This document shows positions 2,085 through 60,147 of a stretch of 64,000 nt of DNA, piece after piece. A model generated the notes under the pieces. The model had not been told where the DNA came from and did not search any database. It saw nothing but the letters and a program-made list of their open reading frames with translations. Made by a program: the position numbers and the translations under genes. The stretch's first letter is position 1; every line of letters begins with the position of its first letter. The DNA is from an uncultured Bifidobacteriaceae bacterium (lineage in GTDB: Bacteria; Actinomycetota; Acidimicrobiia; IMCC26256; PALSA-555). Location of the stretch: contig CAZHKE010000008.1 of NCBI GenBank assembly GCA_964532485.1, positions 745 to 64,744 of the forward strand, written 5' to 3'.

Positions 2085-2672
2085 TCAAGCGGCGAAGTCG
2101 CCCACCAGCTCCTCGCGCTGCGCCTCGTCGAGCGTCACGTCTGCCTGCCACTCCGGATGGTCCACGACGATCCGCACGGGCGCGGCTGCGTCGGCGAACG
2201 CCGCCTGCTGCTCGGCCGTGAAGGGTCCGAACTTCAGGTAGTGGACCGCCGACGTCATGTCGTCGCGGGTCAGTCGCTCGGCGTTCTGCTCTCGAGCAGG
2301 CATGACATCGCTGCCGATGACGATCTTCACGAAGTCCTCGACGTTGGTGAGCTTCGGCAACCAGTACCGCAGCGCCTCGTCGTCGGTGATCTCGATGAAC
2401 AGCGTGCACGACAGCTCGCCGTCCTCGGGGATCAGCTCGTTGTACGTCGCGATCTCGTGCGCGATCTGCTCGTCGCGCAGCATGCGCTCGGCGCGCGCCA
2501 TCTCCTGGATCTGGAAGCGCATCGTCGACGCGTTCTCGAACACGACCGACATGATGTCGCCGAGCGCGATCCGGCGTCGCTTCTTCGCCGCGATGATCTC
2601 GGCGCGGAACTCGTCGCGCTCGCGCTCGTACTCGCGAAGATCCTTGATGTCGGCGTGCGTGAGCTTGCGCAT
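2085..2672 (-). CDS. DUF3501 family protein
   Basis: Internal ATG at 2672 ([22 protein letters not shown]...), 10 nt after the stop of the upstream Fe-S gene. The track ORF start at 2825 would overlap that gene. Sequence pattern and position after a CCG-type Fe-S protein and rubrerythrin fit DUF3501. Confidence 0.7.
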
Positions 2673-5028: not shown

Positions 5029-6003
5029 CTACTGCTGGAGCGCGCCCTGGCCGAGCTGCTCCCGCAAGGCCGCCTCGAACTCGGCGACGGAAGCGCCGGC
5101 GTGGCGCTCCCGCAGGCTCTCGAGCACCGGGTAGCCGGCGTCGCGCTCGGCGTCCCACTCGTCGGCGAACCGGCCCGACGCGATGTCGTCGAGCAGCTCG
5201 CGCATGCGCGTCGCCAGATCGATCTCCGCGAAGGCCTCGCGCCGCGACAGCTGCCCGTACTGGCTCGTCGGCGAGTGGAAGCCGAACTGGTACGCGTAGC
5301 CCTTCTCGCGCACCAGGCGCATGGTGCGCTCGGTCTCCCCCGAGAGGAGCGTCTCGACGATGATCGCCTCGAGCGGGATGCCGTGCTCGAGCAGGCACTC
5401 GATGTAGGTGGTCGTCATGTGCGTCATCACCGGGGCGCGCACCTGCTCCTCCGCGAGGTCGAGGATCGCCTCCTGACGCGGCGTGAGCTCGATCGCCCCC
5501 TGGCGCAGCCCACCGATGGCCTTGGCGACCGCGAGCGTGCGGTCCTTCGCGCGGCCCGTCACGTCGCGGTGGGCGCCGACGGCCGTGATGAAGCCGATGC
5601 CCTCCTCGTAGCAAGCACGCACCTCGGGGCCGAGCATGCGCGGGGCGACCATGCCGATGTCGCCGTCCGGGTCGAAGCGGTCGAACGCGAGCGTGTAGCC
5701 ACTCGCGACGATCGTCAGACCCTCGGCGGGTCGCTGCAGGTCGAGCAGCGGGATGACGTCGTCGGGCACCAGCACGCACGCGATGTCGGCATCGCCGGCG
5801 TCCGCGATCTCACCGGGCGTGAAGCCGTCGTCGGCAGCCTGCTCGCGAGACGCATCGGCCCGCACGCAGATCTGCACGTCGAAGCCCGAGTCGCGCAGGT
5901 TCAGCGCCCAGGAGCGGCCCTGGTTGCCATAGCCGACGATCGCGACCGAGGAGCCTTCGATCGCGGCGAGGTCGGCGTCGTCGTCGTGGAAGATCGTCGC
6001 CAT
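5029..6003 (-). CDS. ketol-acid reductoisomerase-like protein (divergent class I KARI paralog)
   Basis: 324 aa; VAIVGYGNQGRSWALNLRDSG Rossmann motif, MVAPRMLGPEVR, knotted C-terminal domain with LDLAEEQ and SPTSQYG; no ilvBN neighbours. Confidence 0.75.
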   Translation of the reverse strand: MATIFHDDDADLAAIEGSSVAIVGYGNQGRSWALNLRDSGFDVQICVRADASREQAADDGFTPGEIADAGDADIACVLVPDDVIPLLDLQRPAEGLTIVASGYTLAFDRFDPDGDIGMVAPRMLGPEVRACYEEGIGFITAVGAHRDVTGRAKDRTLAVAKAIGGLRQGAIELTPRQEAILDLAEEQVRAPVMTHMTTTYIECLLEHGIPLEAIIVETLLSGETERTMRLVREKGYAYQFGFHSPTSQYGQLSRREAFAEIDLATRMRELLDDIASGRFADEWDAERDAGYPVLESLRERHAGASVAEFEAALREQLGQGALQQ

Positions 6004-6064
6004 GGCGCCGAGGGTACGCGGCTGACGCGTGCCACGTCACTTCGCCGTCACTAGGGTGCGCGCC

Positions 6065-6241: not shown

Positions 6242-7737
6242 CCCGCGTCGCGCCCGACCTGCTCGTGGGCGACATCGTCCGCCATGCCGCCCGGGTGACA
6301 CCGCACGAGCTGGCTGCCACGCTCGGCGACGCCGAGACGACGTTCGGCGCGCTCGACGATCGGTCGAACCAGGTCGCGCGTGCGCTCGCCGCGCGCGGGA
6401 TCGGCGTCGGCGACCGGGTCGCTTGGTGGGGCGAGACCTCGCTCGATGCGATGCCGATCTTCAACGCGCTCGCCCGGGTGGGCGCTGCCTTCATGCCGGT
6501 GAACGCACGGCTCGGCGCCGACGAGGCCAGCGAGGTGCTCGAGTACGCGAAGCCGAAGCTGCTCGTCGCCGACGAGCCCCACGCGGCGCTCGCGAGGGAC
6601 ATCGACCAGGCGGCGCTCACCCACGACGAGCTCTTCACGGCCGCGGACCGGGAGGGGCCGGTCGACGCCGGCAACCCCGACGGGCTCACGGAGCGCACCA
6701 CGCACGTGGTGTTCTTCACGAGCGGCAGCACCGGCCGACCGAAGGGCGTCGTGCTCTCACACCGGACGAGCTGGCTCCGCTCGTTCCAGGGCAACCTCAC
6801 CGACCACTCGGGCGGGACCGTGTGCATGTTCCCCCTGTTCCACATGTCGGGCTGGTCGATGACGGTCAACGCATGGCAGACGCGGTGCCCGGTGCACTTC
6901 GCGACGACACCCGACGCGCCGACGCTCCTGGGGACGGCGGAGCGGCGGTGCGCGACGCGCCTGTACCACATCCCGGCGGTGTGGCAGCGCGTGCTCGAGC
7001 ACGATCGCTCCGGCTACGACCTCTCGGCCGTGCGCGAGTGCGACACCGGCACGTCGGCGACGCCGCCCGAGCTGCTCGCGGCGATCAAGGACGCGTTCCC
7101 CGGGACCGTGACGCGGATCTACTACGGCAGCACGGAGGTCGGCCTGGCGGCGATGCTCGCCGACGGCGACATCGCGCGGAAGCCCGGCTCGGTCGGACCC
7201 GCGGCCGTCGGCGTCTCACTCGCGCTGATCGACGGCGACGAGCGCCAGGGCGAGGTCTGCGTGCGCAGCCCGTTCTTGATGGACGGCTACTTCGAGCATC
7301 CCGGTGCGAACGCCGAGGCGCTCGCACCGATCGAGGCCGGCGGCCCCCCCTGGTACCACACCGGCGACCTCGGTGTGCTCGACGAGGAGGGCTACCTGTC
7401 GATCGTCGGGCGCGCGCGCGACGTCATGCGCACCGGCGGCGAGACCGTCGCGCCTGCTGAGGTCGAGGCTGCGCTGGCCGACTTCCCCGACCTCGACGAG
7501 GTCGCGGTCGTCGGCCTCCCGAGCACCGAGTGGGGTGAGGTCGTCACCGCGGTGGTCGTGCCGCGACCCGGCGCGGCGGTCCCCGACGTCGAGGCGCTGC
7601 AGACCCACTGCGAGGGCCGCCTGGCGCGGTTCAAGCAACCGCGGCGCGTCGAGGTGGTCGAGGCACTCCCCCGCACCGCCGCCACCGGCCAGATCCAACG
7701 CACCCTGCTCGTGGAGCGCCTCGTCGCCGAGGGCTGA
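6238..7737 (+). CDS. AMP-dependent acyl-CoA synthetase/ligase
   Basis: 499 aa; FFTSGSTGRPKGV AMP-binding motif, YHTGDLG, C-terminal FKQPRRVE. Confidence 0.9.
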   Translation: MTRVAPDLLVGDIVRHAARVTPHELAATLGDAETTFGALDDRSNQVARALAARGIGVGDRVAWWGETSLDAMPIFNALARVGAAFMPVNARLGADEASEVLEYAKPKLLVADEPHAALARDIDQAALTHDELFTAADREGPVDAGNPDGLTERTTHVVFFTSGSTGRPKGVVLSHRTSWLRSFQGNLTDHSGGTVCMFPLFHMSGWSMTVNAWQTRCPVHFATTPDAPTLLGTAERRCATRLYHIPAVWQRVLEHDRSGYDLSAVRECDTGTSATPPELLAAIKDAFPGTVTRIYYGSTEVGLAAMLADGDIARKPGSVGPAAVGVSLALIDGDERQGEVCVRSPFLMDGYFEHPGANAEALAPIEAGGPPWYHTGDLGVLDEEGYLSIVGRARDVMRTGGETVAPAEVEAALADFPDLDEVAVVGLPSTEWGEVVTAVVVPRPGAAVPDVEALQTHCEGRLARFKQPRRVEVVEALPRTAATGQIQRTLLVERLVAEG

Positions 7738-7831: not shown

Positions 7832-9142
7832 ATGAGGGTTCGTCGGCTCGGTTCGGTCTTGGCCGCCATCGGTTGCACGCTCGCCATCGGCACCGCCGGC
7901 GTGGCGTGGGCCGGTGGCAACCCCGACACCGACTTCTCCAAGCTCAAGCCCATCAAGGAACCGGCCAACTGCAAGGAGGGCGATGGCGTCACCGACGACA
8001 CCATCAAGGCCGGGTTCATCACGATCACGAGCGGACCGCAGGCCCAGAGCTTCGCCCCCAGCACCGAGCAGGGCGTCCAGGCGCGGATCGACGAGGCGAA
8101 CAGCTCGGGTGAGCTCGGCGACCGCATGATCGAGCTCGTCACCAAGGACGACCAGGGCAACCAGGCCAACAACCTCACGGCCGCGCAGCAGCTCGTCGAA
8201 GAGGAGGGCGTCTTCGGCATCATCGAGATCTCGAACGCGGCGGACGGCAGCGCCGAGTACCTCTACGACGAGAAGATCCCGGTCGCGGGCTGGCACATCG
8301 GCCAGAAGGAGTGGGGCATCTACCCCAACATGTTCTCCTGGCGGAACTCGGTGCCACCCGATCCCGAGACCACGTTCACGAGCCGCGCCGGTGACGTGAT
8401 GAAGGAGCTCGGCGCCAAGAAGATCGCGCTCGTCGGCAGCAACATTGCGTCGAGCGCAGTCTTCATCGACCAGACGAAGCAGGCGATCGACAAGACGAAG
8501 GGTCTCGAGGTCGTCTACGAGACGACCGACGTCACGCCCGAGCAGCAGGACTTCACCGGCATCGCCGACCAGATCAAGTCGAGTGGCGCCGACGGCGTCT
8601 ACACCGGCCTCGCCGGCCTCCAGGCCAACGCGCTGAGCCAGGCCATCAAGCAGGCCGGCGTCGACCTCGAGGCGATCGTGTTCCCCGGCGGGTACGACGA
8701 CCGCGTCGTCAGCCTCCCCGGCTACGAGGGCGCGTACCTCGGCACCGAGTTCAAGCCGCTCGAGGTGGGCGCGCCCGGCCTGACGAAGTACACGGACGCG
8801 ATGGAGGCGGCCGGCTTCGAGCCGGAGCGCTTCTTCGCCATCCAGGGCTACTTCGGTGCCGACGCGTTCATCCAGGGCATCAAGGCCGCGGGTGTCGACT
8901 GCCCGACGCGCAAGGCGTTCATCAACAACCTGCGGCTCGAGGAGGGCTACGACGCGGGCGGCGCGTTCGTCCCGGTCGACTACGCCGAGATCTTCGGCCG
9001 GCCCTTCTACTGCGTCTACTACGTGCAGATCCAGAGCGGCGCGTTCGTACCGGTGAACGACGGCGAACCGATCTGCGCGACGAAGCTCTTCGAGGACGAC
9101 AAGACGAAGAAGCTCTCGAAGGCCGAGCAGGCCAAGGGCTGA
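7832..9142 (+). CDS. ABC transporter substrate-binding protein (branched-chain amino acid / LivJ-like)
   Basis: ATG at 7832 after GGGGGGAA; signal peptide MRVRRLGSVLAAIGCTLAIGTAGVAWA; Peripla_BP_6-like body; followed by Liv-type permease and ATPases. Confidence 0.85.
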   Translation: MRVRRLGSVLAAIGCTLAIGTAGVAWAGGNPDTDFSKLKPIKEPANCKEGDGVTDDTIKAGFITITSGPQAQSFAPSTEQGVQARIDEANSSGELGDRMIELVTKDDQGNQANNLTAAQQLVEEEGVFGIIEISNAADGSAEYLYDEKIPVAGWHIGQKEWGIYPNMFSWRNSVPPDPETTFTSRAGDVMKELGAKKIALVGSNIASSAVFIDQTKQAIDKTKGLEVVYETTDVTPEQQDFTGIADQIKSSGADGVYTGLAGLQANALSQAIKQAGVDLEAIVFPGGYDDRVVSLPGYEGAYLGTEFKPLEVGAPGLTKYTDAMEAAGFEPERFFAIQGYFGADAFIQGIKAAGVDCPTRKAFINNLRLEEGYDAGGAFVPVDYAEIFGRPFYCVYYVQIQSGAFVPVNDGEPICATKLFEDDKTKKLSKAEQAKG

Positions 9143-18370: not shown

Positions 18371-19537
18371 ATGGACTTCTCGTACCCCGCGGAGGCCGAG
18401 GCGTTCCGCGGCGAGTTCAGGGCTTGGCTCGACCGTGAGCTTCCCGGCGACCTGCGCGGAGCCGGCGAGTCGTTGAGCGCGTCGGCCGACTCGCCGGAGC
18501 TGGCGCGCCGGCGGGAGTGGAACCGAGCGTTGGCCGATGCCCGCTACGCCGCGATCGGATGGCCGGAGGAGTACGGCGGGCGCGGCGCGGGCGTCCTCGA
18601 GCAGGTGGTGTGGGCCGAGGAGATGGACCGGGCGCAGGCGCCCGGGCCGATCAACGTGCTCGGCATCCCCAACGTGGCGCCGGCGATCATGACCTATGGC
18701 AGCCACGAGCAGCAGCGCACGCTCCTCCCGGCGATGCTGCGAGGCGACGACATCTGGTGTCAGGGGTTCTCCGAGCCGGATGCGGGGTCCGACCTCGCGT
18801 CGCTGCGGTGCCGAGCCGTGCTCGACGGCGACAGCTGGGTCGTCACGGGCCAGAAGATCTGGACGACGCTGGGACACCTGGCGACGTGGTGCGAGCTGCT
18901 GGTGCGGACCGACCCCGACGCGCCCAAGCACAAGGGCATCTCGTGCCTGCTCGTCGACATGACGCTGCCGGGGATCACGGTGCGACCGCTCGTGACGATC
19001 ACCGGCGCGCACGAGTTCAACGAGGTGTTCTTCGACGAGGTGCGCGTGCCCGCAGACTCGTTGCTCGGGCCTGTCGACGAGGGGTGGCGCGTCGCGATGA
19101 CGACGCTGTCGCACGAGCGTGGCGGTGTCGCGAAGCTGCATCTCGGGACGCGCCGGAAGGTCGCGCGCCTGCTCGACGCGGCGCGGTCGGCGCCGATGGG
19201 TGACGGGCGGGTGGCGGCCGAGGACCCGGTCCTGCGCCAGCAGCTGGCGCGCGTCTACCTCGAGGCGGAGCTGCTGAAGATGGTCGCAGATCGCGCGATC
19301 TCGGGCGAGCTGCACGGGCGCGCGCTCGGTCCGGAGTCGAGCATCGCGAAGCTCGTGTGGAGCGAGACGGAGCAGCACATCGCCGAGGTCGCGGCCGCGG
19401 TGCTGGGACCCGAAGCCGACGGCGGCGCCTGGGGCACCGATCGCGTCGGAGCGAGGTCGCACACCATCGCGGGCGGCACCACCCAGATCAACAAGAACAT
19501 CATCGCCCAGCGTGTCCTCGGACTCCCGCGCGGGTAG
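18371..19537 (+). CDS. acyl-CoA dehydrogenase
   Basis: ATG at 18371 (MDFSYPAEAEAFRGEFRAWL...); FSEPDAGSDLASL, C-terminal GGTTQINKNIIAQRVLGLP. Confidence 0.9.
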   Translation: MDFSYPAEAEAFRGEFRAWLDRELPGDLRGAGESLSASADSPELARRREWNRALADARYAAIGWPEEYGGRGAGVLEQVVWAEEMDRAQAPGPINVLGIPNVAPAIMTYGSHEQQRTLLPAMLRGDDIWCQGFSEPDAGSDLASLRCRAVLDGDSWVVTGQKIWTTLGHLATWCELLVRTDPDAPKHKGISCLLVDMTLPGITVRPLVTITGAHEFNEVFFDEVRVPADSLLGPVDEGWRVAMTTLSHERGGVAKLHLGTRRKVARLLDAARSAPMGDGRVAAEDPVLRQQLARVYLEAELLKMVADRAISGELHGRALGPESSIAKLVWSETEQHIAEVAAAVLGPEADGGAWGTDRVGARSHTIAGGTTQINKNIIAQRVLGLPRG

Positions 19538-19543
19538 CTCCCT

Positions 19544-19586
19544 CTGGTTGCGTCCCTCACCCGCGTATCCAGGGGTGAGAGACGCA
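19544..19586 (+). repeat. 43-bp palindromic repeat, copy 3, forward
   Basis: CTGGTTGCGTCCCTCACCCGCGTATCCAGGGGTGAGAGACGCA, begins 6 nt after the ACAD stop. Confidence 0.9.
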
Positions 19587-19626
19587 TGTCGGAGGACTCG
19601 TCACGACACCGAGCGCGGGCGTCAGT

Positions 19627-20592
19627 GTGGTCGTGGCTTCACCGCATGCGGGCGGCAGGCTCTCGTCCCTCGCTCGTCACCAGCACGGGGTGTTCACCCG
19701 CGCCCAGGCCGTCTCCGCAGGACTCACCCTCGGCGCGATCGAGGGGCGAGTCCGCTGGGGTCAGTGGATTGCCGTCGACCACGGCGTCTACCGCGCCGCG
19801 GAGACGCCCACGTCGTGGTCGCAACGTCTCCTCGCCGCGTGCCTGGCCGGACCGGCGGTTGCCTCGCATCGGAGCGCCGCCGCGCTCTGGGGCTTCCCCG
19901 ACTTCGGCGAGCGCGAGGTCGAGATCACCGCGATGCGGCATCGCCGACGCAAGAGCCCCGACGTGATCTGGCACGAGAGCGTCCGCCTCGATTCCGACGA
20001 GGTGACGAAGATCGATGCCATCCCGGTGACGACTCCGACCCGCACGATCATCGACCTCGGCGCGGTGGTTCCAGAGCAGAGCGTCCTGTACGCCTTGGAC
20101 GACGCCGTCCGGCGCAAGCTCACGTCGGTGGAGCGCCTGCAGCGCGAGCTCGAGCGGTGGGGCAATCGACGCCGGGGAAGCGGGATCGTGCGCCGGGCAG
20201 CGGCACGTCGGCGACTGGAGCCCGTGCCGGAGAGCGCACTGGAGACGGAGTTCGAGAGCTTGGTCGATCGGTCGGGGCTGCCGACGCCCTCGCGCCAGTG
20301 GGTCGTCCGCGACCCAGACGGCGACTTCGTCGCTCGCGTCGATTTCGCCTACCCCGCCGCACGGCTGGCCATCGAGATCCAGAGCATTCGCTTCCACGCC
20401 GGCCCCGACGAGTGGCGCGCCTGGATGGCACGCGAAGCGGAGCTGGTCGCTGCGGGATGGCGCGTGCTGCAGGTCACCGCACGCGATCTCCGAGCCCGTC
20501 CGGACCAGCTCGTGAAGAGACTCATCCGGGCGCTTGATCACGGTCCTGCGTCCCTGACCCACGAATACGCGGGTGACGGACGCAACCGATGA
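19627..20592 (+). CDS. AbiEi-type wHTH + DUF559 (Vsr/PD-(D/E)XK-like endonuclease fold) protein
   Basis: 321 aa. N-terminus ...ARHQHGVFTRAQAVSAGLTLGAIEGRVRWGQWIAVDHGVYR. C-terminus ...SALETEFESLVDRSGLPTP...VDFAYPAARLAIEIQS...GWRVLQVTARDL. The last 15 codons lie in repeat copy 4. Confidence 0.8.
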   Translation: MVVASPHAGGRLSSLARHQHGVFTRAQAVSAGLTLGAIEGRVRWGQWIAVDHGVYRAAETPTSWSQRLLAACLAGPAVASHRSAAALWGFPDFGEREVEITAMRHRRRKSPDVIWHESVRLDSDEVTKIDAIPVTTPTRTIIDLGAVVPEQSVLYALDDAVRRKLTSVERLQRELERWGNRRRGSGIVRRAAARRRLEPVPESALETEFESLVDRSGLPTPSRQWVVRDPDGDFVARVDFAYPAARLAIEIQSIRFHAGPDEWRAWMAREAELVAAGWRVLQVTARDLRARPDQLVKRLIRALDHGPASLTHEYAGDGRNR

Positions 20593-23500
20593 GGAGGTCG
20601 GCGGCGAACAGGAGCACCGCGAGCCAGCCCAGCTCGGGGGCATCCGCGGCCTTGGCGATGACCAGCGCGAGCGGGGCGCCGGCGGTCAGCAGCAGCCGGG
20701 CGCCGCGCACACGCGCCGCCACCACCGTCGCCACGGCCACGAGCGCGCCGATCCACCATCGCGACACCAGCGCCGACGCGAGACCGGCCACCGCCGCGCT
20801 CACCCCCGCCGCGCGCCAGTCCAGCGGCGGCACGCCCGGCACGCCCTCGTACCCGAGTGGCGACGAGAGCTCGGGATCCTCGACCACGACGGGGATCACG
20901 GCCCGGCGGGTCGCGACCACCACACCGAGACAGACGAGGATCGCGAGCACCGACAGCGCCATCGCGATCCACACGACGTTCTGCGGCGTCCACCGCAACG
21001 TCACGTCGTACGTCCCCGCCTCGCCCGGATCGATCAGCCACCCGTTCGCGTAGCCGTTCACCAGGCGCGGCTCCCCCAACGACCTCCCGTCGAGCTCGGC
21101 CTTCCAGCCGTCGCTCAGGCTCTGCCCGAGAACGAGCCAGAACGGCTGGCCGTCGCTGTGCACACGCAGGTCGTACGTCGTCGCGCCCTCGTCGGTCACC
21201 TGCACGCGCGCGCCCGCCGCCGGGCTGCTCTCGGCGAACGTCGCCACCGGCGTCGCCACGCCGCTCGCACCGGACGTGAGCACGAGCCGGTCGACGTCGA
21301 TGCCCGTGACGACCCCCGTCCGAGCCCGCACGAGGTGCGATCCCGCGTCCAGCGCCACCGGTCCGTTGCAGGCCTCCAACCCCGACTCGGCCGTCATCCG
21401 CACCGGCAGCGGCGTGCTGTCGACGCTGACGAGGTCGTCGCGGCACACCTGGTGCAGCGGCGCCGACACCGGGGCCTGCGGAACGCCCGACATGCCCAGC
21501 TCGGCGATCCCCACCGGCGCGGCCACGGGCGTCAGCGTGCGGTCGTCGACCGACGGGACGACCCGGGCGCTCTCGACGACGAACCGCAGCCTCGTCGCGG
21601 TCACCGGCCCGAACCGGAACGGCACCTCCTGGCTGGAGCCCTCCCCCGGAGTATCCGCGATCGCGGGGAGCTCGACGGTCGCGACCGGCGCGCCATCCGC
21701 CTCGACGCGCACGCGCGTCGGCACCGAGCGCAGCCCGTCGGTGACGAGCCGGATCGTCGCGCCCTCGACCGTCGTCGGACCGTCGAGCTCGGCCTCGAGC
21801 CACTCCCCGCGGTCGATCGAGAACGGCGAGTCCCACGCGGTGGCGTCGTCGCCGTCGAACGCGCGCGACGCCCGCGCGCCGGCGTCTCCCGCGCGGTGGC
21901 CCGACGCGCGGAACACGACGCCGGGTGTCGTCGTCCCCAGCACCCTGTCGAGCACGTCGTCGGGAGCGTTCGCCGCGACCCGAGCGGCGCCCGACACCTC
22001 GAAACCGCGCTCGCCGCCCCCACCGCCCGCGCCGCCCGAACCGATCGCGGGCTTCGGGAGCTCGAACTCGCGCACGAGCGCCTGCTCCTCGTCGAACCCG
22101 CCGCGCTCGGCGGGGTCGTAGCGCGACCGCGAGAACACGAATCCCAGGGCTCGCTCCCCCGCAGACGCGCCCGCTCGCCGCAGCAGCCTCGTCGGGACCC
22201 GGACGACCTCGTCGACCAGCGCCTCTCCTTCACCGTCGCGGGTCAGACCGATGTCGGCGAAGCCGGCGCTCGCGCGCGTGCTGCCACGACTCTCGAGCGG
22301 CTCGATGGTGAGCGTGCGCACCTGCTGCGCGGGCACCGGCACGTGCTGCCCCTCCGGCGCGCGCGACGACTCGTCGAGCGCGACGTCGAACGGCACACGG
22401 TCGTCGAGCTGCACGCGAGCCTTCGTGATCAACCGCGACGCGTCGGAAGGCTGCGTGAACGTGATCCCGTCGGTGCGCACGGAATCATCCAGCTCGAGCA
22501 CCAACCGGTCGCCGTCGAGCTCGCGGCCACCCGCGGTCCTCCACGCGGTGCGCACGTCACCGTCGAACGCCAGCGCGGGTCGCTCGGACGGCAGGTACGC
22601 GTCCTTGTCGCCGTATGCCGTCGCGTCAACACGACCCCCACGCTGCTCGACGACCGTCCGGTCGCGGTCCGACTGATCCTCGACGATCTCGAAGCGGAAG
22701 TCGTCGGCGTCCTCGGCGATCGCCTGCTGCCCGGAGCGCTCCGTGAGGCCCACGTCGTCACGCAGGCGGTTCCAGCGACGGGCCCGACGACGGTTCGTGT
22801 CGGTCACCATGAGCTCGGCCTCGTCGTCGATCGCTCGGGCGAGCTCCTGGTCGTCGAGCGACGCGCCGTAGAGGACGACGCCGTCGCCACCGACGAACCC
22901 CGCCGCGGCGGCGTCCACGACGCCCTCCCCGTCGCCTTCGAGCACGAGCGGCGCCTCGACCGACGCGGCCGACACGATCGGCCGAGCGTCGGTCACGTCG
23001 AACAGCGCGACGTTCGGCGGCCACGCCGAGCCCTGGCTCCGCAGCTCGCTCTCGTCGCGAAGCGGCAGCACGATCGACGCGAAGTTGGGGTCGGTCGACC
23101 CGAACGCCGTGGGCTCCTGGAGCCCGGGTGCCAATGGATCCGTCAACCAGCGCCACACGTCGCGCGGCCGAGGAGTGTCGTAGCGCTCGTACTCGAGGTC
23201 GTTGCGCGCCACGACGGTACCCACGCCGAGCAGTCGCAGCACGGGCGCGAGCGAGTCGGGCTCGACCGTCCCGTGCTGGAAGCGCCGGTCGAGCGCCGCG
23301 AGGAGGTCGACGGAACCGCGCGTCCCGAACGGCATCAGCTCGCGCGCGACCCACGGTCGATCGGTGAGCCCAGGGGTCACGGGGTCGACCGTGTTCCCCC
23401 ACCGGTAGGCGGCGAACAGCGAACCCGGCAGCTCGAGCGCGCGCGTCCCGTCGTCGCCTGCGTCGAGCGCGTCGGCCACCTCGTGCCAGTACTGCGGAAT

Positions 23501-24775
23501 GTCCTCGGCGCGCTCGATCCGCTCCGAGAGGTACCCGTGGCGCCAGACCGGGAGGAACGCCAGCGCCACGACGGCGACGACCACCGCCGCGGCACCCAGC
23601 TGGAAGGCCCGCCGCCGGGACAGGGCGGCGACGCCGCCTGCGATCAGCCCTGCGAGACCCAGGACGATGACCGGCCCGACGCGCGGCGTGTTGCGCAGGG
23701 CAGCGCCGGCTGCCGACCTGCCGGCAAACGACTTGAAGACGTCGCCGACGATGCTCGGGTCCTCGTACGGCCACGCGCCGACACCGACGATCGTGCCGAC
23801 GACCACGAGTGAGCCGAGGAAGACTCGGTGCTTCCACCGGACGAAGGCTGCCGCGACGAGCCCCGCGACGGGCACGAGGAGCGTCAACGCCGCCAGCGCC
23901 CGCGAGTCGGCGTAGTCGGGTGCCTGGTCGAGCCAGCTCCCGACCCGGTCGCCGCCCGAGAGGAACCAGTTGCCGAAGCCGCGCAGGAGGTCGGCCGGAC
24001 GCGAGGCGTCCGCCACCTGCTCGAGCGTCTCGGTGACGTCGAGCACCGGGATCCCGTACCGGGCCTGCGTCCGGAGACCGGCCATCCACCACAGCGAGAC
24101 GGCGATGCTGAGCAGCGCGACCCGCCCGGCGACGGCGAGCGCCCGGCGCCACTCGAGGTCGCGCTGCGCGCACGTGATGACGAGCCACAGGAGTGGGGCG
24201 ATGCCCACGAAGACCAGCGATGACGCGTTGGTGCTGCCGATGAGCAGGATGACGAGCGCGAACAGCGCCGGATCACGCCAGCCACCGCGCCGCGCGGCGC
24301 GGATCGTCAACCCGATCAGCCACGGGAGCCCCGCCCACGGGAGCAAGAGCACCGAGAGTCGAGCCGTGAACGCGAGCTGGTACGGCGTGAGCAGGTAGAC
24401 GATCGCGCCGACGACCGCGCCGACCCGCTTCGTACCGAACATCGTGAAGAGCCACAGCGCGCCTGCCGCGGCCGCGAACGAGATCGAGCCGAGGAACAGC
24501 CGTTGCGCGACCCAGTCGGGCACGCCGAGCTGGTCCATCACCCAGTAGTAGGGACCCAGGGGGAACAGGTAGCCGACGTTCTGGTGCGGGACCGTGCCGG
24601 TGCCGATGTGCGAGTCCCACAAGTAGACCGCGCGCGACAGCAATCGACCGGGGTCGAGGTACAGGTACTGCTTCGTGTCCCCGCTCACCTTGCCCGGCGA
24701 GGAGAGCAGGAACGGGATGTACGCGAGCGCGGCGAGGGCGAGAAGGTCGACGCGACGAACACGCGGACTGCTCAC
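20522..24775 (-). CDS. aftD: AftD-family alpha-(1->3)-arabinofuranosyltransferase-like giant GT-C protein (paralog 1)
   Basis: 1417 aa. N-terminal multi-TM GT-C domain with PGKVSGDTKQYLYLDPGRLL...NVGYLFPLGPYYW...GVPDWVAQRLF, as in mycobacterial AftD/DUF3367. Large soluble region with discoidin-like AFDGDVRTAW and AFDGDDATAW motifs. C-terminal TM helices. Confidence 0.9.
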   Translation of the reverse strand: MSSPRVRRVDLLALAALAYIPFLLSSPGKVSGDTKQYLYLDPGRLLSRAVYLWDSHIGTGTVPHQNVGYLFPLGPYYWVMDQLGVPDWVAQRLFLGSISFAAAAGALWLFTMFGTKRVGAVVGAIVYLLTPYQLAFTARLSVLLLPWAGLPWLIGLTIRAARRGGWRDPALFALVILLIGSTNASSLVFVGIAPLLWLVITCAQRDLEWRRALAVAGRVALLSIAVSLWWMAGLRTQARYGIPVLDVTETLEQVADASRPADLLRGFGNWFLSGGDRVGSWLDQAPDYADSRALAALTLLVPVAGLVAAAFVRWKHRVFLGSLVVVGTIVGVGAWPYEDPSIVGDVFKSFAGRSAAGAALRNTPRVGPVIVLGLAGLIAGGVAALSRRRAFQLGAAAVVVAVVALAFLPVWRHGYLSERIERAEDIPQYWHEVADALDAGDDGTRALELPGSLFAAYRWGNTVDPVTPGLTDRPWVARELMPFGTRGSVDLLAALDRRFQHGTVEPDSLAPVLRLLGVGTVVARNDLEYERYDTPRPRDVWRWLTDPLAPGLQEPTAFGSTDPNFASIVLPLRDESELRSQGSAWPPNVALFDVTDARPIVSAASVEAPLVLEGDGEGVVDAAAAGFVGGDGVVLYGASLDDQELARAIDDEAELMVTDTNRRRARRWNRLRDDVGLTERSGQQAIAEDADDFRFEIVEDQSDRDRTVVEQRGGRVDATAYGDKDAYLPSERPALAFDGDVRTAWRTAGGRELDGDRLVLELDDSVRTDGITFTQPSDASRLITKARVQLDDRVPFDVALDESSRAPEGQHVPVPAQQVRTLTIEPLESRGSTRASAGFADIGLTRDGEGEALVDEVVRVPTRLLRRAGASAGERALGFVFSRSRYDPAERGGFDEEQALVREFELPKPAIGSGGAGGGGGERGFEVSGAARVAANAPDDVLDRVLGTTTPGVVFRASGHRAGDAGARASRAFDGDDATAWDSPFSIDRGEWLEAELDGPTTVEGATIRLVTDGLRSVPTRVRVEADGAPVATVELPAIADTPGEGSSQEVPFRFGPVTATRLRFVVESARVVPSVDDRTLTPVAAPVGIAELGMSGVPQAPVSAPLHQVCRDDLVSVDSTPLPVRMTAESGLEACNGPVALDAGSHLVRARTGVVTGIDVDRLVLTSGASGVATPVATFAESSPAAGARVQVTDEGATTYDLRVHSDGQPFWLVLGQSLSDGWKAELDGRSLGEPRLVNGYANGWLIDPGEAGTYDVTLRWTPQNVVWIAMALSVLAILVCLGVVVATRRAVIPVVVEDPELSSPLGYEGVPGVPPLDWRAAGVSAAVAGLASALVSRWWIGALVAVATVVAARVRGARLLLTAGAPLALVIAKAADAPELGWLAVLLFAADLLIGCVRHPRIRGSGTQDRDQAPG
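20547..20589 (-). repeat. 43-bp palindromic repeat, copy 4, reverse
   Basis: Reverse complement TCGGTTGCGTCCGTCACCCGCGTATTCGTGGGTCAGGGACGCA; lies inside the 3' ends of both convergent ORFs. Confidence 0.9.
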
Positions 24776-37879: not shown

Positions 37880-37922
37880 TGCGTCTCTCACCCCTGTATG
37901 CGCGGGTGACGGACGCATCCAG
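37880..37922 (-). repeat. 43-bp palindromic repeat, copy 5, reverse
   Basis: Reverse complement CTGGATGCGTCCGTCACCCGCGCATACAGGGGTGAGAGACGCA. It starts at the nucleotide after the TGA of 37208..37879 and ends 9 nt before the convergent methyltransferase stop. Confidence 0.9.
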
Positions 37923-37931
37923 AGAGAGCGG

Positions 37932-38597
37932 TCAGCGCTTGCGGAGGACCGTGACGCCGTCGCCGAGCGGGAGGATCGCCGACTCGACGCGGTCGTCGCG
38001 GGCGACCAGGTCATTGAACGCACGGATCGCCAGCGTGTTCTCGTCCTGCGCCGACTCGTCGATCACGGCACCGCCCCACAGCGTGTTGTCGATCAGCAGC
38101 AGCCCGTCGGCGCGCACCCGCGGCAGCAGCTCCTCGAAGTAGTCGGCGTAGCTCGGCTTGTCGGCGTCGATGAACACGAAGTCGATGGGCTCGTCCGTCG
38201 GCAGCGCGCGCAGCGTCTCGATCGCGGGCGCGATGACGAGGTCGATCCGATCGTCGACGCCGGCACGCTTCCACGCCTCACGCCCGAGCGACGTCCACTC
38301 CTCGCTCACGTCGCAGCACAGCAGCCGGCCGCCGTCGACGAGGCCGCGCGCGATGGAGAGCGCCGAGTAGCCGGTGAACGTGCCGACCTCGACCGCGCGC
38401 CTCGCCCCGATCGCTCGCACCAGGAGCTGCATGAACGCGCCCTGCTCGGGAGAGATCTGCATCATCGCGAGGTCGGAGACCCGCGACCTCGTCTCCTCGA
38501 TCAGCCAGCGCTGCACGTCGTCGGGCGGCGTGCCGTGATCGACGACGTACTCGGCGATCTCGGCGCCGAGGAAGAACGATTTCGGGTCGTCAGGCAT
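37932..38597 (-). CDS. class I SAM-dependent O-methyltransferase (caffeoyl-CoA/catechol OMT-like)
   Basis: 221 aa; VEVGTFTGYSAL, FIDADK; its ATG overlaps the AftD paralog 2 stop (ATGCCTGA). Confidence 0.85.
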   Translation of the reverse strand: MPDDPKSFFLGAEIAEYVVDHGTPPDDVQRWLIEETRSRVSDLAMMQISPEQGAFMQLLVRAIGARRAVEVGTFTGYSALSIARGLVDGGRLLCCDVSEEWTSLGREAWKRAGVDDRIDLVIAPAIETLRALPTDEPIDFVFIDADKPSYADYFEELLPRVRADGLLLIDNTLWGGAVIDESAQDENTLAIRAFNDLVARDDRVESAILPLGDGVTVLRKR

Positions 38598-41500
38598 CGT
38601 CGGAGGCTACCGATCGCCGTCGCCGCCGGATCCACTGCACGACCACGTCGGCTCCGAGCAGCCAGACGGCCAGCCAGGCGAGATCGCCGACGTCCTCGAA
38701 CCGAGACGGCCAGCTCGCGATCGTCGGGTAGCCGTTGCGAGCCTGCTGCACGACGACGTAGCCGGCGGCGAGCGCGAACGCCGCGACGCTGCCGATCGTG
38801 AGCACGATCCGGCCACGCGGCCACCGCAGCGCGGCCGCGGCCGCGAGCCCGACGACGACGCCGACCCACGGGCGGGATGCGATGCCGGCGACGAGCCCGA
38901 CGCTGATCACCGCCGCGACCGTCACGCCGACGGACGGTGCAGCGCCGCGCGACGACAGGGGCGACCGGAGTGCAGGGGTCTCGACATCCGGGCTGGGCGC
39001 GTGCGCATAAGCGGTGACGAGCACGGGCCGGCGGCGCAGCGCGAGGACGAGGCACACCAGCACCGCGAGCACCGAGATGCCGATCGCCCACCAGACCAGG
39101 CCCTGGGGTGTCCAGCGCAGCCGGATCGTCAGCTCGCCCGCGCCCCGCGGCGTGATCCGCCAGCCGTTCGCGTAGCCGTTCACGAGCGTGCGGTCACCGA
39201 CCCTCGCGGCACCGTCGACGTCGAGCTCCCACCCCTTGTTCTCGCTCTGCCCCAGCACCAGCCAGAACGGGCGGCCGGTCGTCGAGAGCTTCGCGTCGAC
39301 GCGCGTCGGCCCCTCGTCGTCGACGCGTGCACGCGCGCCCGATGCCCGGTCTTCCGGCCCGAGGAGCCCGGGCGCGAGCGGGCCGCCGCCGACCTCGGAG
39401 CCGAGGACGAGCCGATCGAGGTCGACCCCGCTCACCGCCCCCGACTGCGTCCGCACCACGTGGCTCCCAGCGGTGAGGTCCATCGTCGCCGGATCGCAGG
39501 CCTCGACCGCGAGCGTCCTTCCCGCCTCCGCGGCGGCGACGTCGCCGCTGACTCGCACGCCGGCGGGCCTGTCGTCGATCGAGACCATCTGCTCGCATCG
39601 GTCGGGCAGCGTCGCCGGGTCCGCCGGCGTCGGGACGCCGGCCATCCCGACCGAGGCGATCGCGACGGGCAGCACCCGGTCGCGACCCGTGCGCGCGTCT
39701 CGCGTCGTGACCGGACCGACCTCGTCGACCTGCACGCGGAAGCTGCTCCCGGTGACGGGCTCGAACGAGACCGGCACGGTCGCCACCGGGCTCTCGGGAC
39801 CGGGGTTCGCGATCGGTGGGACGTCGATCGTGCGGGCCGGCTGCCCGTCGACGTCGAGTCGCAGCCGCGTCGGGACCGAGTGCCGGCCGTCGGCGACGAC
39901 GCGCAGGTCGAGCCCCGACACGGTGACGGGCGCGCTCAGCCGTACGCCGACCCACTGGCCGGTCTGGTCACCGGCGGGCGCCGTCCAGGCCGTGTCGGCG
40001 TCGCCGTCGAACGCACGCGACGCGCGGGCGCCCGCGTCGCCGCGCAGGTGGCCGGATGCCTCGAACACCGCACCGGATGCGGTCGTCCCGAGCACGTCGT
40101 CGAGCGTGGCGTCGTCCGCGTTCGGGTCGAGGCGCGCCTGTCCCGCGAGGGAGAACGATCGCGCCGTTGGCAGCTCGAACCGGCGCACCATCGTCGGCTC
40201 CTCGGCGTGACGTCGCGTCGAGGCGGGCTCGTACCCGAGGCGCGACATCAGGAGTACGAGCGTGTGGTCGATCGACGCGTCACCGGCGGCGCGGAGCAGC
40301 CGCGTGGGCATGCGGACGATGTCGCGCGCGTGCGGCACGACGTCGTCACCGATCTCGACCTCGCTGAAGCCGACCCCGTTGACACCGCCGTAGCTCGCGA
40401 GCTCGCCCGTGCTCGTGTCGAGCACCTCGATCTCGACGTGGCCGATCGGGCGCGGATCGAAGCGCACGACCTGGCCCGCAGGCGTGCGTGACGCGTCGTC
40501 GAGGTCGACGTCGATCGACTCGCCGCCGCCGAGGTGCAATCGCACCTTCGTGACGAAACGGTCGCCCGGCGGGTCCTGCGGCTGGACGAGCGTGATCCGA
40601 TCGGCGGACCCGGCGGGATCGACGTCGATGATCAGCCGCTCGCCCGCGGGGTCGTCTTCACCACCGACGCGCCAGGCGGTCGTCGGGTCGCCATCGAGCG
40701 CGTTGCTCGGCCGTTGATCGGGCGCGTAGATCGACCGCTCGCCATATGCCGTCGCGGTGACGCGCGCGTCGCCGCGCTCCTCCACCACGGTCCGATCCCG
40801 GTCGTCGCTGCCGGGGAAGACGTCGAGGCGCTTGTCTTCCGGGTCAACGGAGCGGGGGTCCTCCTCGATCGGCGACTCCCCCGCCCGTTCCGTGCGCCCG
40901 GTGACGTCACGGATCGCGCCCCAGCGGCGCGCCCGACGCCGGTTCGTGTCGGAGACGACGAGGTCGGCGTTGTCGTCGAGTGCCTGTCGGAGGCCGGTGG
41001 GGTCGTCGGCGAACGACGCGGAGTAGAGGACGACCTCGGTGCCGTCGATGAGCCCCGCGGCCGCGAGGTCGACCAGCCCCTCGCCGTCGCCCGCGACGAG
41101 CACCGGCTGCCGGGTCGTCGCGGTGTGCAAGATCGACGGCACGTCGGTCACCCCGAAGAGCGCGACCTCGGGCGGCCAGGATGCGTCGCGTGGCGTCGCG
41201 AGCTCGAGCTCGTCGAGGACCGGGAACCTCGTCGCCGGGTTCGGCGCTCCCGGCCCGTAGCCGCGGGGCGCTTCGAGCCCGGGTGCGCGCGGATCGGTCA
41301 GCGCGGCCCAGAGCAGGCGTGGCCGTGGCGTGTCGGAGCGCTCCCACTCGAGGTCGGATCGCAGCAGGACCGTGCCGCTGCTGAGCAACCGCGCGATCGG
41401 CGCGAGCGAGTCGGGCTCGAACGTCCCCTCCTGCATGCGGTGATCGAGGGCGATCGCCAGGTTCGCGGCGGCGGGTGACCCGAAGTACGGGATCAGCTCG

Positions 41501-42987: not shown

Positions 42988-44132
42988 GCGCGCCGGCGGG
43001 CGTCGGCGGCGAGCGCCTCGAGAGTCCCGAGCGCGGTCGCGTCCCAGGTGCACTGCGCGGCACGGGCGACCGCACCCGCACCGAGCCGATCGCGCGTCGC
43101 GATGTCGGTCAGCACGCGTTCGAGCGCGTCGGGGAAGTCGGCGATCCGGCCGACCAGCAGACCGCTCTCGCCGTCGCGCACGGCGTCGCGATGTCCGGCG
43201 ATGTCGGTCGCGACCGCGGGCGTGCCGCACGCTGCCGCCTCCGTCAGCGTCATCCCCCACCCCTCGCGCGCCGAGGTGCTCGCGACGACCCACGTGCGAC
43301 GGTAGAGATCGACCAGCTCGGCGTCGTCGACGCGACCCGGCAGTGAGATCCAATCCTCGGCGCCACGCTCTCGGATGAGGCTCTCGAGCCTCTCTCGCTC
43401 GTAGCCCTCCCCGACGATGACGGCGACGAGCTCGGGCACCCGCGGCTTCAGCGCCGTGAGCGCGTCGACGAGGAGATGGAACCGCTTCACCGGCACGAGG
43501 CGGCCGACGGCGAGGACGAGCGGGCGCTCGGCCTTGCTCCCCGCTGGGGTGAACGAGGCGTCGACCCCGGGGTGGACGACCTGGACGCGATCGGCGGCGA
43601 AGTGCATGTCGTGCACGAGCTCGCGCTTGGACGACTCCGACAACGTCACGATGGATGTGCCGCGATAGAGAGGAGGTGCGAGGCGCGACTCGATGAACCT
43701 GCCGACGCGGGCGAGGTCCGGCGACAGGGTCATGTCCCACATCTCGGCGTGGAGATGGTGCAGGAACACGACGCGAGGGCACCGCGCCCACAGCGGCGAG
43801 AAGAAGGGCATGCCGTTCCAGATCTCGACGAGGCCGTCAGCGGGTCCGTGCAGTCCGGTGAGCTCCGCCAGCGCGGCGCGGGGGAACACCATGTAGCGCC
43901 CCGCGCGGCGCACCACGCGGTAGCCGCTCCGACGAGTCACCGCCGGGTGGTCGGCCGCGAACGACGTGCGCATCGTGATGTCGAGGCCCGCACCCGCCCA
44001 CCGCGAGGCGATCTCGTGCGCGTGCAGCTCGGAGCCACCGGCTTCGGGGTCATCGAGGTCGCGCCACATCAGGATGTGGATGCGCCGCAGCCCGGCCGCG
44101 GCCGCGACGTCACCGAGCTTGTTCGTGGTCAT
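42984..44132 (-). CDS. glycosyltransferase family 4
   Basis: 382 aa; GT-B with EGWGMTLTEAAACGTPAVATDIAGHRDAV (E-x7-E) motif. Confidence 0.9.
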   Translation of the reverse strand: MTTNKLGDVAAAAGLRRIHILMWRDLDDPEAGGSELHAHEIASRWAGAGLDITMRTSFAADHPAVTRRSGYRVVRRAGRYMVFPRAALAELTGLHGPADGLVEIWNGMPFFSPLWARCPRVVFLHHLHAEMWDMTLSPDLARVGRFIESRLAPPLYRGTSIVTLSESSKRELVHDMHFAADRVQVVHPGVDASFTPAGSKAERPLVLAVGRLVPVKRFHLLVDALTALKPRVPELVAVIVGEGYERERLESLIRERGAEDWISLPGRVDDAELVDLYRRTWVVASTSAREGWGMTLTEAAACGTPAVATDIAGHRDAVRDGESGLLVGRIADFPDALERVLTDIATRDRLGAGAVARAAQCTWDATALGTLEALAADARRRA

Positions 44133-60098: not shown

Positions 60099-60141
60099 CC
60101 TGGTTGCGTCTCTCACCCGCGTATTTCACGGTGAGGGACGC
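60099..60141 (+). repeat. 43-bp palindromic repeat, copy 6, forward
   Basis: CTGGTTGCGTCTCTCACCCGCGTATTTCACGGTGAGGGACGCA, between the hyuB-like stop (60086) and the hyuA-like GTG (60148). Confidence 0.9.
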
Positions 60142-60147
60142 ATCAAC

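Follow-up and report, generated by a model that had tools for sequence, protein, structure and literature searches.

The closest described counterparts of the locus reported here are the REPtrons, in which RAYT genes are bracketed by repetitive extragenic palindromic (REP) sequences, the AbiEi antitoxins of type IV AbiE systems, the nucleases of the Vsr/DUF559/EDxHD type, to which the homing endonuclease I-Bth0305I belongs, and the insertion sequences (IS) with their miniature inverted-repeat transposable elements (MITEs). The locus is a unit of 1046 bp in a stretch of 64,000 nucleotides (contig CAZHKE010000008.1 of assembly GCA_964532485.1, positions 745 to 64,744), referred to below as the window, from an uncultured bacterium of the Acidimicrobiia. 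It consists of one gene, encoding an AbiEi-like protein with a Vsr/DUF559-type nuclease domain, and of one copy of a 43-bp imperfect palindrome at either end. Here we report that gene and flanking repeats belong together as a rule of this protein family, that the two repeats of a locus evolve in concert and change with the protein allele, and that the segment between them is inverted and replaced as a discrete unit.

As in a REPtron, a single gene on the chromosome, apparently passed on vertically, stands between copies of an imperfect palindrome specific to its lineage; further copies, solo or as inverted doublets, occupy extragenic gaps, the repeat tends to change along with the gene, and the gene is rare on plasmids and phages. 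It differs from a REPtron in that an AbiEi-like and Vsr-like PD-(D/E)XK nuclease takes the place of the HUH/Y1 (IS200-like) enzyme, in that most lineages have few or no dispersed copies, in that the orientation of the flanking repeats is not fixed, in the periodic single-arm arrays of some lineages, which imply duplex binding, and in that several paralogues with private repeats may occur in one genome and alleles appear to be exchanged cassette-wise. AbiEi antitoxins such as those of S. agalactiae and M. tuberculosis (Rv2827c) share their fold and signature with the N-terminal two thirds of the protein; they bind inverted-repeat pairs just upstream of their genes and autorepress, and the left palindrome is in the equivalent position. 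In contrast to them, the protein carries a fused nuclease and has no AbiEii partner, the gene has a second putative site at its 3' end, the sites delimit an exchangeable cassette, and extra copies occur elsewhere in the genome.

The C-terminal domain has the fold of the Vsr/DUF559/EDxHD nucleases and keeps the active-site D, E and H, but the equivalent of Vsr D97 is W in the clade of the window. I-Bth0305I, which functions as a dimer, likewise has a nuclease and, apart from it, a region for sequence-specific DNA binding. Unlike a homing endonuclease gene, the gene is intergenic and not placed in an intron or intein, its presumed sites flank it intact and unsplit, and a cassette-less allele (locus L283) carries another gene and no site. 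With IS elements and MITEs the unit shares a DNA-binding and a catalytic domain encoded between inverted terminal sites, a MITE-like gene-less doublet and a promoter-proximal end that could autoregulate; however, no DDE, HUH or serine/tyrosine recombinase is encoded, and the position is stable over long evolutionary distances. No flanking repeats, DNA target or function are described for AbiEi-DUF559 proteins in the full-text literature searched, which is an absence of evidence only.

An orthologue profile delivered 80 loci in species-representative genomes, with 29-61% identity and mostly from Acidimicrobiia and other Actinomycetota. At each locus the 350 nt upstream of the conserved N-terminus were aligned to the reverse complement of the stop-codon region; a score of 28 corresponds to the 99th percentile of a mismatched-pair background, a threshold that misses short or diverged repeats, and genes in the related loci were called by a simple rule based on G+C content at third codon positions (GC3). 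Among the 74 homologue loci with enough flanking sequence, 50 (68%) score above 28 and 42 (57%) above 40, whereas 589 other genes of the same loci, treated identically, give 21 (3.6%) and one (0.17%), and 416 shifted windows in these loci give 2.9% and none. For homologue loci versus neighbouring genes the Fisher P values are 7e-40 (score above 28) and 6e-45 (score above 40). Without exception, the 18 loci of at least 45% identity have the same repeat on both flanks. An earlier reading of the window from its sequence alone (the sequence-only reading) had suggested tabulating whether inverted pairs flank DUF559 paralogues more often than expected; for these homologues, the contrast between 68% and 3.6% supports the association as a family-wide rule and no local accident. 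The same layout was found in cultured actinomycetes, two Arthrobacter and one Tsukamurella (all three via a plasmid collection), and in a metagenome-assembled genome (MAG) of Gordonia. The neighbours in Tsukamurella are co-directional, and the layout is therefore independent of convergent genes.

The flanking repeats are lineage-specific in sequence, usually 40-55 bp long and usually imperfect palindromes. Their placement varies little: measured to the QHGVFT codon, the distance from the end of the left repeat has a median of 95 nt (interquartile range 86-113), which places this end about 40 nt ahead of the start codon, and the right repeat sets in a median of 5 nt ahead of the stop codon's end. 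The pairs are inverted in about 72% of cases and direct in about 16 of 58 (about 28%), so that the outward inverted geometry seen in the window does not hold as a general rule. A genome may contain several diverged paralogues, each with private repeats (L177/L195, L127/L133 and L130/L140). Runs of copy-gene-copy-gene-copy were observed at two loci, where a third palindrome copy brackets a neighbouring gene, for a Pup ligase in L149 (8188-8239, 9883-9934, 10863-10914) and for a small bacterial PH-domain-like protein in L148 (8676-8699, 9077-9095).

In nine syntenic loci the left and right palindromes of one locus share an identity of 0.84, versus 0.715 (left) and 0.714 (right) between loci, and the separation of the left and right positions is older than that of the nine lineages. 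In L120 and L124, whose acyl-CoA dehydrogenase (ACAD) genes are 97% identical, the same arm positions differ in all four half-sites (TTG/CTG vs CTC/CCC), with the partner arms changed to match. The palindromes of L006 deviate from those of the window at 9-15% of positions; the spacer adjoining them is scrambled, and the synonymous sites of the gene are saturated. The flanking copies thus evolve in concert and change with the protein allele.

The ratio of nonsynonymous to synonymous substitution rates (dN/dS) of the gene is 0.13-0.25, and the protein is therefore under purifying selection. The synonymous divergence (dS) of the gene is about 0.9-1.1 in every pair compared, and 0.89-1.07 for the cassettes of Tsukamurella, while that of the flanks ranges from 0.03 to 0.70: 1.06 against 0.25 for ACAD in L004-L006, 1.02 against 0.50 for ACAD in L120-L124, and 1.05 against 0.03 for NmrA and 0.12 for LysE in the Tsukamurella tyrosinosolvens pair L363-L365. 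A fast clock as sole cause was rejected, as dS is saturated whatever the flank dS, and the lower codon bias of the gene (GC3 0.85 vs 0.92) can be a partial factor only, unable to give a 9- to 36-fold excess. The alleles appear to be much older than their surroundings, which points to cassette-wise replacement; locally raised mutation is less likely.

The two T. tyrosinosolvens strains (L363, 2352-3401, and L365) have flanks of 98.4% and 99.4% identity, between which the palindrome-to-palindrome segment is inverted and only 75% identical. The segment takes in 7 nt beyond the palindrome at either end, the breakpoints are placed 3-8 nt away from the pair, one side loses homology at the stop codon of LysE, and the palindromes themselves differ (TGCGGTGGATTCTCACCGCTCAGCGG... 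vs TGTGGAGGATCGACCTCGCTCAGCGG...). Among five Tsukamurella genomes (L363, L365, L367, L369 and L370) both orientations of the cassette occur; the four alleles are mutually 74-76% identical at the DNA level, with flanks of 81 to 99%, and each has private arms around the common centre CCGCTCAGCGG. The palindrome pair therefore bounds a discrete unit, subject to cassette-bounded inversion and allele replacement. LysE, which adjoins the cassette, is somewhat more diverged than the farther flank, so that homologous recombination of the ordinary kind within the flanks may account for the replacement; the inversion, for its part, requires the inverted palindromes or an enzyme that acts on them. The cassette of T. 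tyrosinosolvens, a cultured organism, is a hypervariable locus exchanged as a unit.

The nearest genome-level relative, the uncultured Acidimicrobiia MAG CAVSWW01, is collinear with positions 9411-30680 of the window at about 81% DNA identity. Metagenomic and MAG orthologues with 99, 82, 77 and 57-63% protein identity share the context of POR/TPP operon, ACAD, gene, convergent AftD and PMT_2, and the linkage of ACAD and gene persists where ACAD is only 66-70% identical (L128, L134, L137, L139). Both palindromes are present in every syntenic orthologous locus compared, and the unit is therefore not a recent insertion. The comparison of the ACAD/aftD junction that the sequence-only reading had suggested came out in the same sense, with both palindromes accompanying the gene in all orthologues and both absent from gene-less loci. 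Scans of metagenome and genome collections with ACAD gave, among the matches listed, three cassette-less loci, L282, L283 and L284. The unit is missing from L282 and L284, where no hairpin follows ACAD. In L283 (5140-6579) a gene for an unrelated FAD/BBE oxidase, without palindrome, occupies the interval between the same two convergent stop codons, of ACAD and a second ACAD (ACAD2), that flank the cassette of its close relative L139 (4285-5271; ACAD 91% and ACAD2 96% identical). The slot between ACAD and ACAD2 thus takes different cargo. In L115 (5851-5960; also in L116-L118) the left palindrome is split by an insertion of about 57 nt with a G+C-rich hairpin, GGCGAGGCGGGGTATCCCCGCCTCGC, flanked by a short AGGGA duplication. 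The plasmid collection gave 33 matches, mostly true AbiEi antitoxins beside an AbiEii gene or matches covering the AbiEi part only, and phages gave one weak match, from which the family appears to be almost absent from plasmids and phages.

The window has a G+C content of 70.8% and contains six copies of the palindrome (Table 1). A scan with the consensus at up to three mismatches found five of them, against 0.00 expected in shuffled sequence; the right copy at the gene was missed because it has four mismatches, and is recovered by a profile made from the five others. These four are substitutions without indel (TCGGTT for CTGGTT, CCG for CCC, GGGTCAGGG for GGGTGAGGG). Each copy has a 10-nt centre between arms of 14 bp, TGCGTCCCTCACCC and its complement, and asymmetric ends, the CTGGTT tail on one side and a loosely conserved NGTCSGA on the other. 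Half-sites TGCGTCCCTCACCC with up to two mismatches occur 12 times in the window, against 1.4 expected by chance, and all lie inside the six palindromes. All coordinates of the sequence-only reading proved exact. Its description of a forward and a reverse copy bracketing exactly one gene, with outward CTGGTT ends as in the gene-less doublet, is confirmed, as are the CGGTCC inner flank shared by the two reverse copies (1551-1556 and 20541-20546) and, by Pfam matches, the position between convergent ACAD and AftD-paralogue genes.

Table 1. Features of the window and arrays of related loci (array positions refer to the locus named)
Feature	Position	Strand	Basis or remark
Gene-less head-to-head doublet, 18-nt spacer	1496-1538, 1557-1599	+, -	Between dUTPase stop (1601-1603) and luciferase-like monooxygenase gene
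Acyl-CoA dehydrogenase (ACAD) gene, left neighbour	18374-19537	+	Pfam Acyl-CoA_dh_N/M/1; syntenic in all orthologous loci
Left palindrome: CTGGTT tail, arms TGCGTCCCTCACCC / GGGTGAGAGACGCA, 10-nt centre	19544-19586	+	1 mismatch to consensus; nhmmer E=3e-19
CGTCAC, candidate -26-like element by position	19599-19604	+	Positional enrichment of TGTCAC in the family
Gene for 321-residue AbiEi-like protein with Vsr/DUF559-type nuclease	19627-20592	+	Pfam, PADLOC and fold matches
Right palindrome: 4 mismatches, tail TCGGTT	20547-20589	-	nhmmer E=6.5e-13; conserved in orthologues
AftD-like arabinofuranosyltransferase paralogue, right neighbour	20522-24775	-	Pfam GT-C_AftD E=5e-96; synteny
Solo copy	37880-37922	-	Exactly between convergent stops of a hypothetical gene (ending 37879) and an O-methyltransferase gene (37932-38606)
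Solo copy	60100-60142	+	Between hydantoinase/oxoprolinase B and A subunit genes, inside a likely operon
L127 array	1389-1545, 2481-2586		Four 33-bp units left, at least 3 right
L162 array	7473-7631, 8661-8833		Five 32-33-bp units each side
L126 array	5945-6020, 6973-7050		Two units, period 38-45 bp

The left palindrome begins 6 nt after the TAG stop codon of ACAD (19535-19537), and a weaker dyad symmetry reaches from about 19540 to 19596; it is kept in place among orthologues while the spacer after it diverges. Folded as DNA it gives -15.9 kcal/mol (z=-4), and the right palindrome -19 kcal/mol (z=-4.7). The latter lies within the 3' ends of both convergent open reading frames (ORFs). The TGA stop codon of the gene (20590-92) directly follows the right copy, so that its last 15 codons are translated repeat, and the final 23 or so codons of the AftD-like ORF read across it. 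The peptide 'PASL..GERRN' recurs in orthologues because the C-termini of both convergent proteins are translated palindrome; the overlap of the two ORFs, about 70 nt at 20522-20592, is entirely repeat sequence. With 0.85, the gene has a lower GC3 than its neighbours (0.90-0.92), as it has in Tsukamurella (0.82-0.90, neighbours 0.89-0.97); low expression or an evolutionary history of its own would fit this. An outward extension of the inverted repeat into the coding ends of ACAD and AftD was judged to be low-complexity, C/T-rich similarity and not part of the element. The window contains no match to any Rfam family and no second copy of the gene; no intrinsic terminator (G+C-rich stem and T-run) was found in 19300-20900, where scans for promoter and terminator consensus were negative, and there is no target-site duplication at the ends of the unit or at the Tsukamurella breakpoints.

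Wherever an upstream gene exists, the CTGGTT tail of the window copies faces its stop codon. The doublet folds as a single long hairpin (-52 kcal/mol). The solo copy at 60100-60142 separates two subunit genes, a place where a strong terminator is unexpected. The window encodes two AftD-like GT-C paralogues, at 20522-24775 and 38590-43791 (both on the minus strand), each with F5/8 type C and CBM_AftD domains, and the gene block downstream of each ends at a palindrome copy, which for the second is the one following the O-methyltransferase gene. The window's variant occurs at least five times in CAVSWW01, at positions that are not orthologous and with one doublet built on the same 18-nt spacer; a loose 17-base repeat pattern gave mostly chance matches against genome contigs, and among the matches listed true copies occur only in CAVSWW01. 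Solo copies were seen elsewhere in L135 (two perfect palindromes between convergent genes), L148, L149 and L200, and the related loci hold 6 extra dispersed copies in about 811 kb. Judged from these loci, the primary association is that of the gene with its flanks and not of the gene with a large dispersed family.

In three loci tandem single-arm arrays, inverted between the flanks, stand in place of the palindromes (Table 1). The unit of the L127 array (GTGCGCTTCTCACCGTCGATC) resembles one arm of the window palindrome. Arrays with a period of about three helical turns cannot fold as hairpins and therefore favour duplex recognition; such spacing is typical of proteins on one face of duplex DNA. 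In the palindromic loci the types of stem mismatch are as random, with no excess of G.T on either strand. Complementarity of the arms is kept, with 93% of cells paired and 4 of 14 positions changed on both sides, beyond all 500 shuffles; a dyad-symmetric binding site would predict this as well as a hairpin would. Proteins of the AbiEi family bind inverted repeats in their own promoters (PMC7319586), and each arm may be a half-site for the winged-helix domain. Arrays and mismatch pattern together make duplex binding by the AbiEi-type domain more likely than an HUH-like recognition of single-stranded hairpins, the folded form on which the sequence-only reading had suggested testing the protein.

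All Pfam matches of the window protein score below the gathering threshold: AbiEi_4 (residues 11-57), AbiEi_1 (72-176) and REase_MTES_1575 (239-303). PADLOC AbiEi models cover residues 10-186 (E=2e-35), and the AlphaFold model (31 homologues) reaches a pLDDT of 87 and a pTM of 0.80. In Foldseek searches the AbiEi antitoxin of S. agalactiae (6y8q) was matched by the N-terminal 200 residues, at a target TM-score of 0.62-0.65, and the catalytic domain of I-Bth0305I (3r3p) by the C-terminal 100, at 0.67-0.76; the sequence profile of the protein matches 3r3p and also 3hrl (DUF559). Residues 10-186 are accordingly AbiEi-like, comprising a winged helix and the AbiEi C-terminal domain, residues from about 200 to 304 form the Vsr/DUF559/EDxHD-type nuclease, and residues 305-321, translated from the right palindrome, are a tail that is disordered in the model. 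The assignment of an AbiEi-type winged helix-turn-helix N-terminus and a DUF559 Vsr-like C-terminus, proposed from the ORF translation, holds on the evidence of PADLOC, 6y8q and 3r3p. Fold and profile searches delivered AbiEi and Vsr-like nuclease only and no HUH/Y1 transposase, and neither an NCBIfam match nor a hit in the look-up of the exact product was obtained. There is no AbiEii (DUF1814) nucleotidyltransferase partner next to the gene, its neighbours being ACAD and AftD, nor in the homologous loci examined.

The active site was mapped on the basis of the I-Bth0305I paper (PMC3239194). D239 (Vsr D51), E250 and H257 (Vsr H69) are retained, as is R269. In the window protein Q252 replaces a D of the family (E-I-Q vs E-I-D; N in I-Bth0305I, H in Vsr), and W266 replaces another, at the equivalent of Vsr D97. 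Two of the five Vsr/EDxHD catalytic positions are thus substituted, while most family members keep all five; W266 is limited to the immediate clade of the window, and Q252 is also common to the CAVSWW01 clade. The doubt cast on the active site because of E-I-Q was therefore justified, and W266 adds a second substituted position. I-Bth0305I is catalytically active with N at the position of Q252 (PMC3239194), and the catalytic competence of the window protein appears uncertain.

Many family members carry a TGTCAC-N10-TAnnnT-like sequence near the start codon, with N10 enriched, which resembles the PafBC (RecA-NDp) promoter with its -26/-10 hybrid consensus tGTCgg(N10)tA(N3)T (PMC8635444). TGTCAC/GTCAY stands at a fixed place between left palindrome and start codon in 32 of 75 loci (34-nt window) versus 15% expected, and GTCnn-N10-nAnnnT is enriched at exactly N10, with 13-14 loci against about 3-3.6 for other spacings. 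The bipartite motif ends 3-8 nt before the start codon (e.g. L160, L164, L176, L159 and L157). A part of the family may therefore be expressed without a leader and induced by DNA damage. The motif of the window differs in being partial, and the host organisms are mostly uncultured Acidimicrobiia; no -10-like hexamer follows CGTCAC, so that the promoter assignment is weak there. The supplement of the PafBC regulon paper makes no mention of DUF559.

Taken together, the unit is probably a self-specifying single-gene cassette, with palindromes that are the predicted binding sites of its own protein and at the same time its ends. The protein would join an AbiEi-type DNA-binding module (winged helix and C-terminal domain) to a nuclease of the Vsr/I-Bth0305I type, and the flanking palindromes would be its own double-stranded sites, with the arm TGCGTCCCTCACCC as one half-site and a pair of protomers per palindrome. 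The left site, ending 40 nt before the start codon, would occlude the promoter and lead to autorepression, as AbiEi antitoxins do at inverted repeats; the right site abuts the stop codon, and both together would mark the ends of the cassette. Such a cassette could stay for long at one chromosomal locus and there be inverted, lost, or replaced whole by a diverged allele with matching palindromes, and the solo and doublet copies elsewhere in the genome would be additional copies of the same binding site. Binding to the sites, repression of the gene, nuclease action at or near the sites and DNA-damage induction in part of the family are functional statements that we infer from sequence.

Several observations weigh against this explanation. 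In 32% of the loci no flank repeat was detected at the threshold used, and to our knowledge neither a transposon-end nor a simple looping model predicts the share of direct pairs. A downstream operator is, as far as we know, not a feature of AbiEi systems, and a consensus scan found no sigma-70-type promoter at the window locus. The substitutions Q252 and W266 at two catalytic positions mean that the window protein may only bind DNA. The solo copies stand at the 3' ends of genes and turn their tails to the stop codon, which also fits an explanation at the RNA level or by choice of insertion site. The CAVSWW01 orthologue, finally, is flanked by a different variant (GCGTAGGTCACCTTCGTGA) from the dispersed window type (GCGTCCCTCACCC), which weakens a strict link of one protein to one repeat family.

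The last point also bears on the proposal of the sequence-only reading that the locus is a REPtron analogue, in which the protein would recognise the folded palindrome, nick it, and copy or maintain a dispersed REP/REPIN-like family as a non-HUH counterpart of RAYT. The cognate link between protein and repeat is supported by the family-wide enrichment and the concerted copies, and solo and doublet copies do exist here; dispersed copies, by contrast, are rare elsewhere, and outside this lineage parts of the proposal are contradicted. A chromosomal, syntenic gene amid its own palindromes and almost absent from plasmids and phages has the profile of RAYT genes (PMC5581495, PMC3116915), and the four extra copies of the window with their head-to-head doublet, the like-built doublet at a non-orthologous CAVSWW01 site, and the solo copies of L135, L148, L149 and L200 sit, one of them inside an operon, in extragenic gaps as REP sequences do. 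Dispersed copies are nevertheless rare in most lineages, the lineage richest in them has the most degenerate active site, and the orthologue in CAVSWW01 is not flanked by the variant dispersed there; with a fold other than HUH, and with single-arm arrays and a lack of strand-specific wobble that point to duplex recognition, we regard this mechanism as unlikely. Rather improbable is a selfish mobile cassette, whose palindromes would be the ends of the element and whose nuclease would be a mobility enzyme of the homing or cut-and-repair type, causing spread or allele replacement through recombinational repair. It would account for the homing endonuclease as nearest solved relative of the nuclease domain, for a DNA-binding domain and nuclease between inverted sites, sometimes arrays, like transposon ends, for the palindrome-bounded inversion and replacement in Tsukamurella, for alleles far older than their flanks and for diverged paralogues with private repeats within one genome. 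It is at odds with the long-lasting synteny, the rarity of the family on plasmids and phages, the few contigs per protein cluster and the direct pairs, and the divergence of LysE lets ordinary flank recombination explain the replacement. The IS- or MITE-like mobility suggested by the sequence-only reading found no backing: we saw neither near-identical copies of the gene nor target-site duplications nor bursts in the manner of MITEs, and IS-like transposition is therefore unsupported. Integron attC sites were considered and rejected, since integron cassettes have one attC each and depend on an integrase.

Very improbable is the explanation that the repeats act as transcript hairpins (terminators, insulators or 3'-end stabilisers) which isolate a potentially toxic gene and remain similar by gene conversion. 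The stems are stable, the arms stay complementary through two-sided changes, and copies stand just past stop codons with the tail towards the gene, the right one where two convergent transcripts would end; against these count the missing U-tract, terminator consensus and Rfam match, the solo copy between the two hydantoinase subunit genes, the lack of an excess of G.U-compatible mismatches on either strand, the tandem single-arm arrays, which cannot form hairpins, and the change of the arms with the protein allele. Coincidence, by which ACAD and AftD would each carry a dispersed 3'-end repeat with an unrelated gene between them, can be argued from the window alone: that some gene is flanked in this orientation is there only marginally unexpected, with P of about 0.1 by our own estimate (about 5 repeat sites, about 60 intergenic gaps), and the rule that tails face stop codons by itself gives outward tails between convergent genes. 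It has next to no probability in view of the family-wide enrichment, the layout between co-directional neighbours in Tsukamurella, the disappearance of both palindromes together with the gene, and the concerted evolution of the two copies.

Proteins of this family are usually annotated as 'very short patch repair endonuclease' or 'AbiEi antitoxin domain-containing protein'. The AbiEi-DUF559 architecture is very common: at E<=1e-3 a profile search recovers 62,014 cluster representatives (clusters of 50% identity), of which 7,273 reach E<=1e-30. A probable recognition sequence stands on both flanks of each gene, which makes the function of the family directly testable: the predicted binding site of any member can be read from its own locus, cultured hosts exist in Tsukamurella tyrosinosolvens, Arthrobacter and Gordonia, and natural allele pairs with different arms are ready specificity swaps. 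Annotation calls for caution, as the C-terminal 15-20 residues of family proteins, and of neighbours such as AftD here, are translated repeat. For the role of the system, selfish, defensive (Abi-like) and damage-response functions are candidates. It is possible, though we hold it only tentatively, that the AbiEi-Vsr proteins of Actinomycetota are an unrecognised class of self-specifying elements, in which cleavage at private palindromes drives inversion, replacement or homing and seeds the solo and doublet copies; if true, they would be a non-HUH functional counterpart of RAYT/REPIN, which would explain multi-copy, hypervariable and yet site-faithful genes. If the cassette model holds, the family would provide a hypervariable, cassette-wise exchanged locus amid otherwise conserved chromosome regions, with a possible link to the PafBC DNA-damage response and maybe a second, mechanistically different route to REP-like repeat families.

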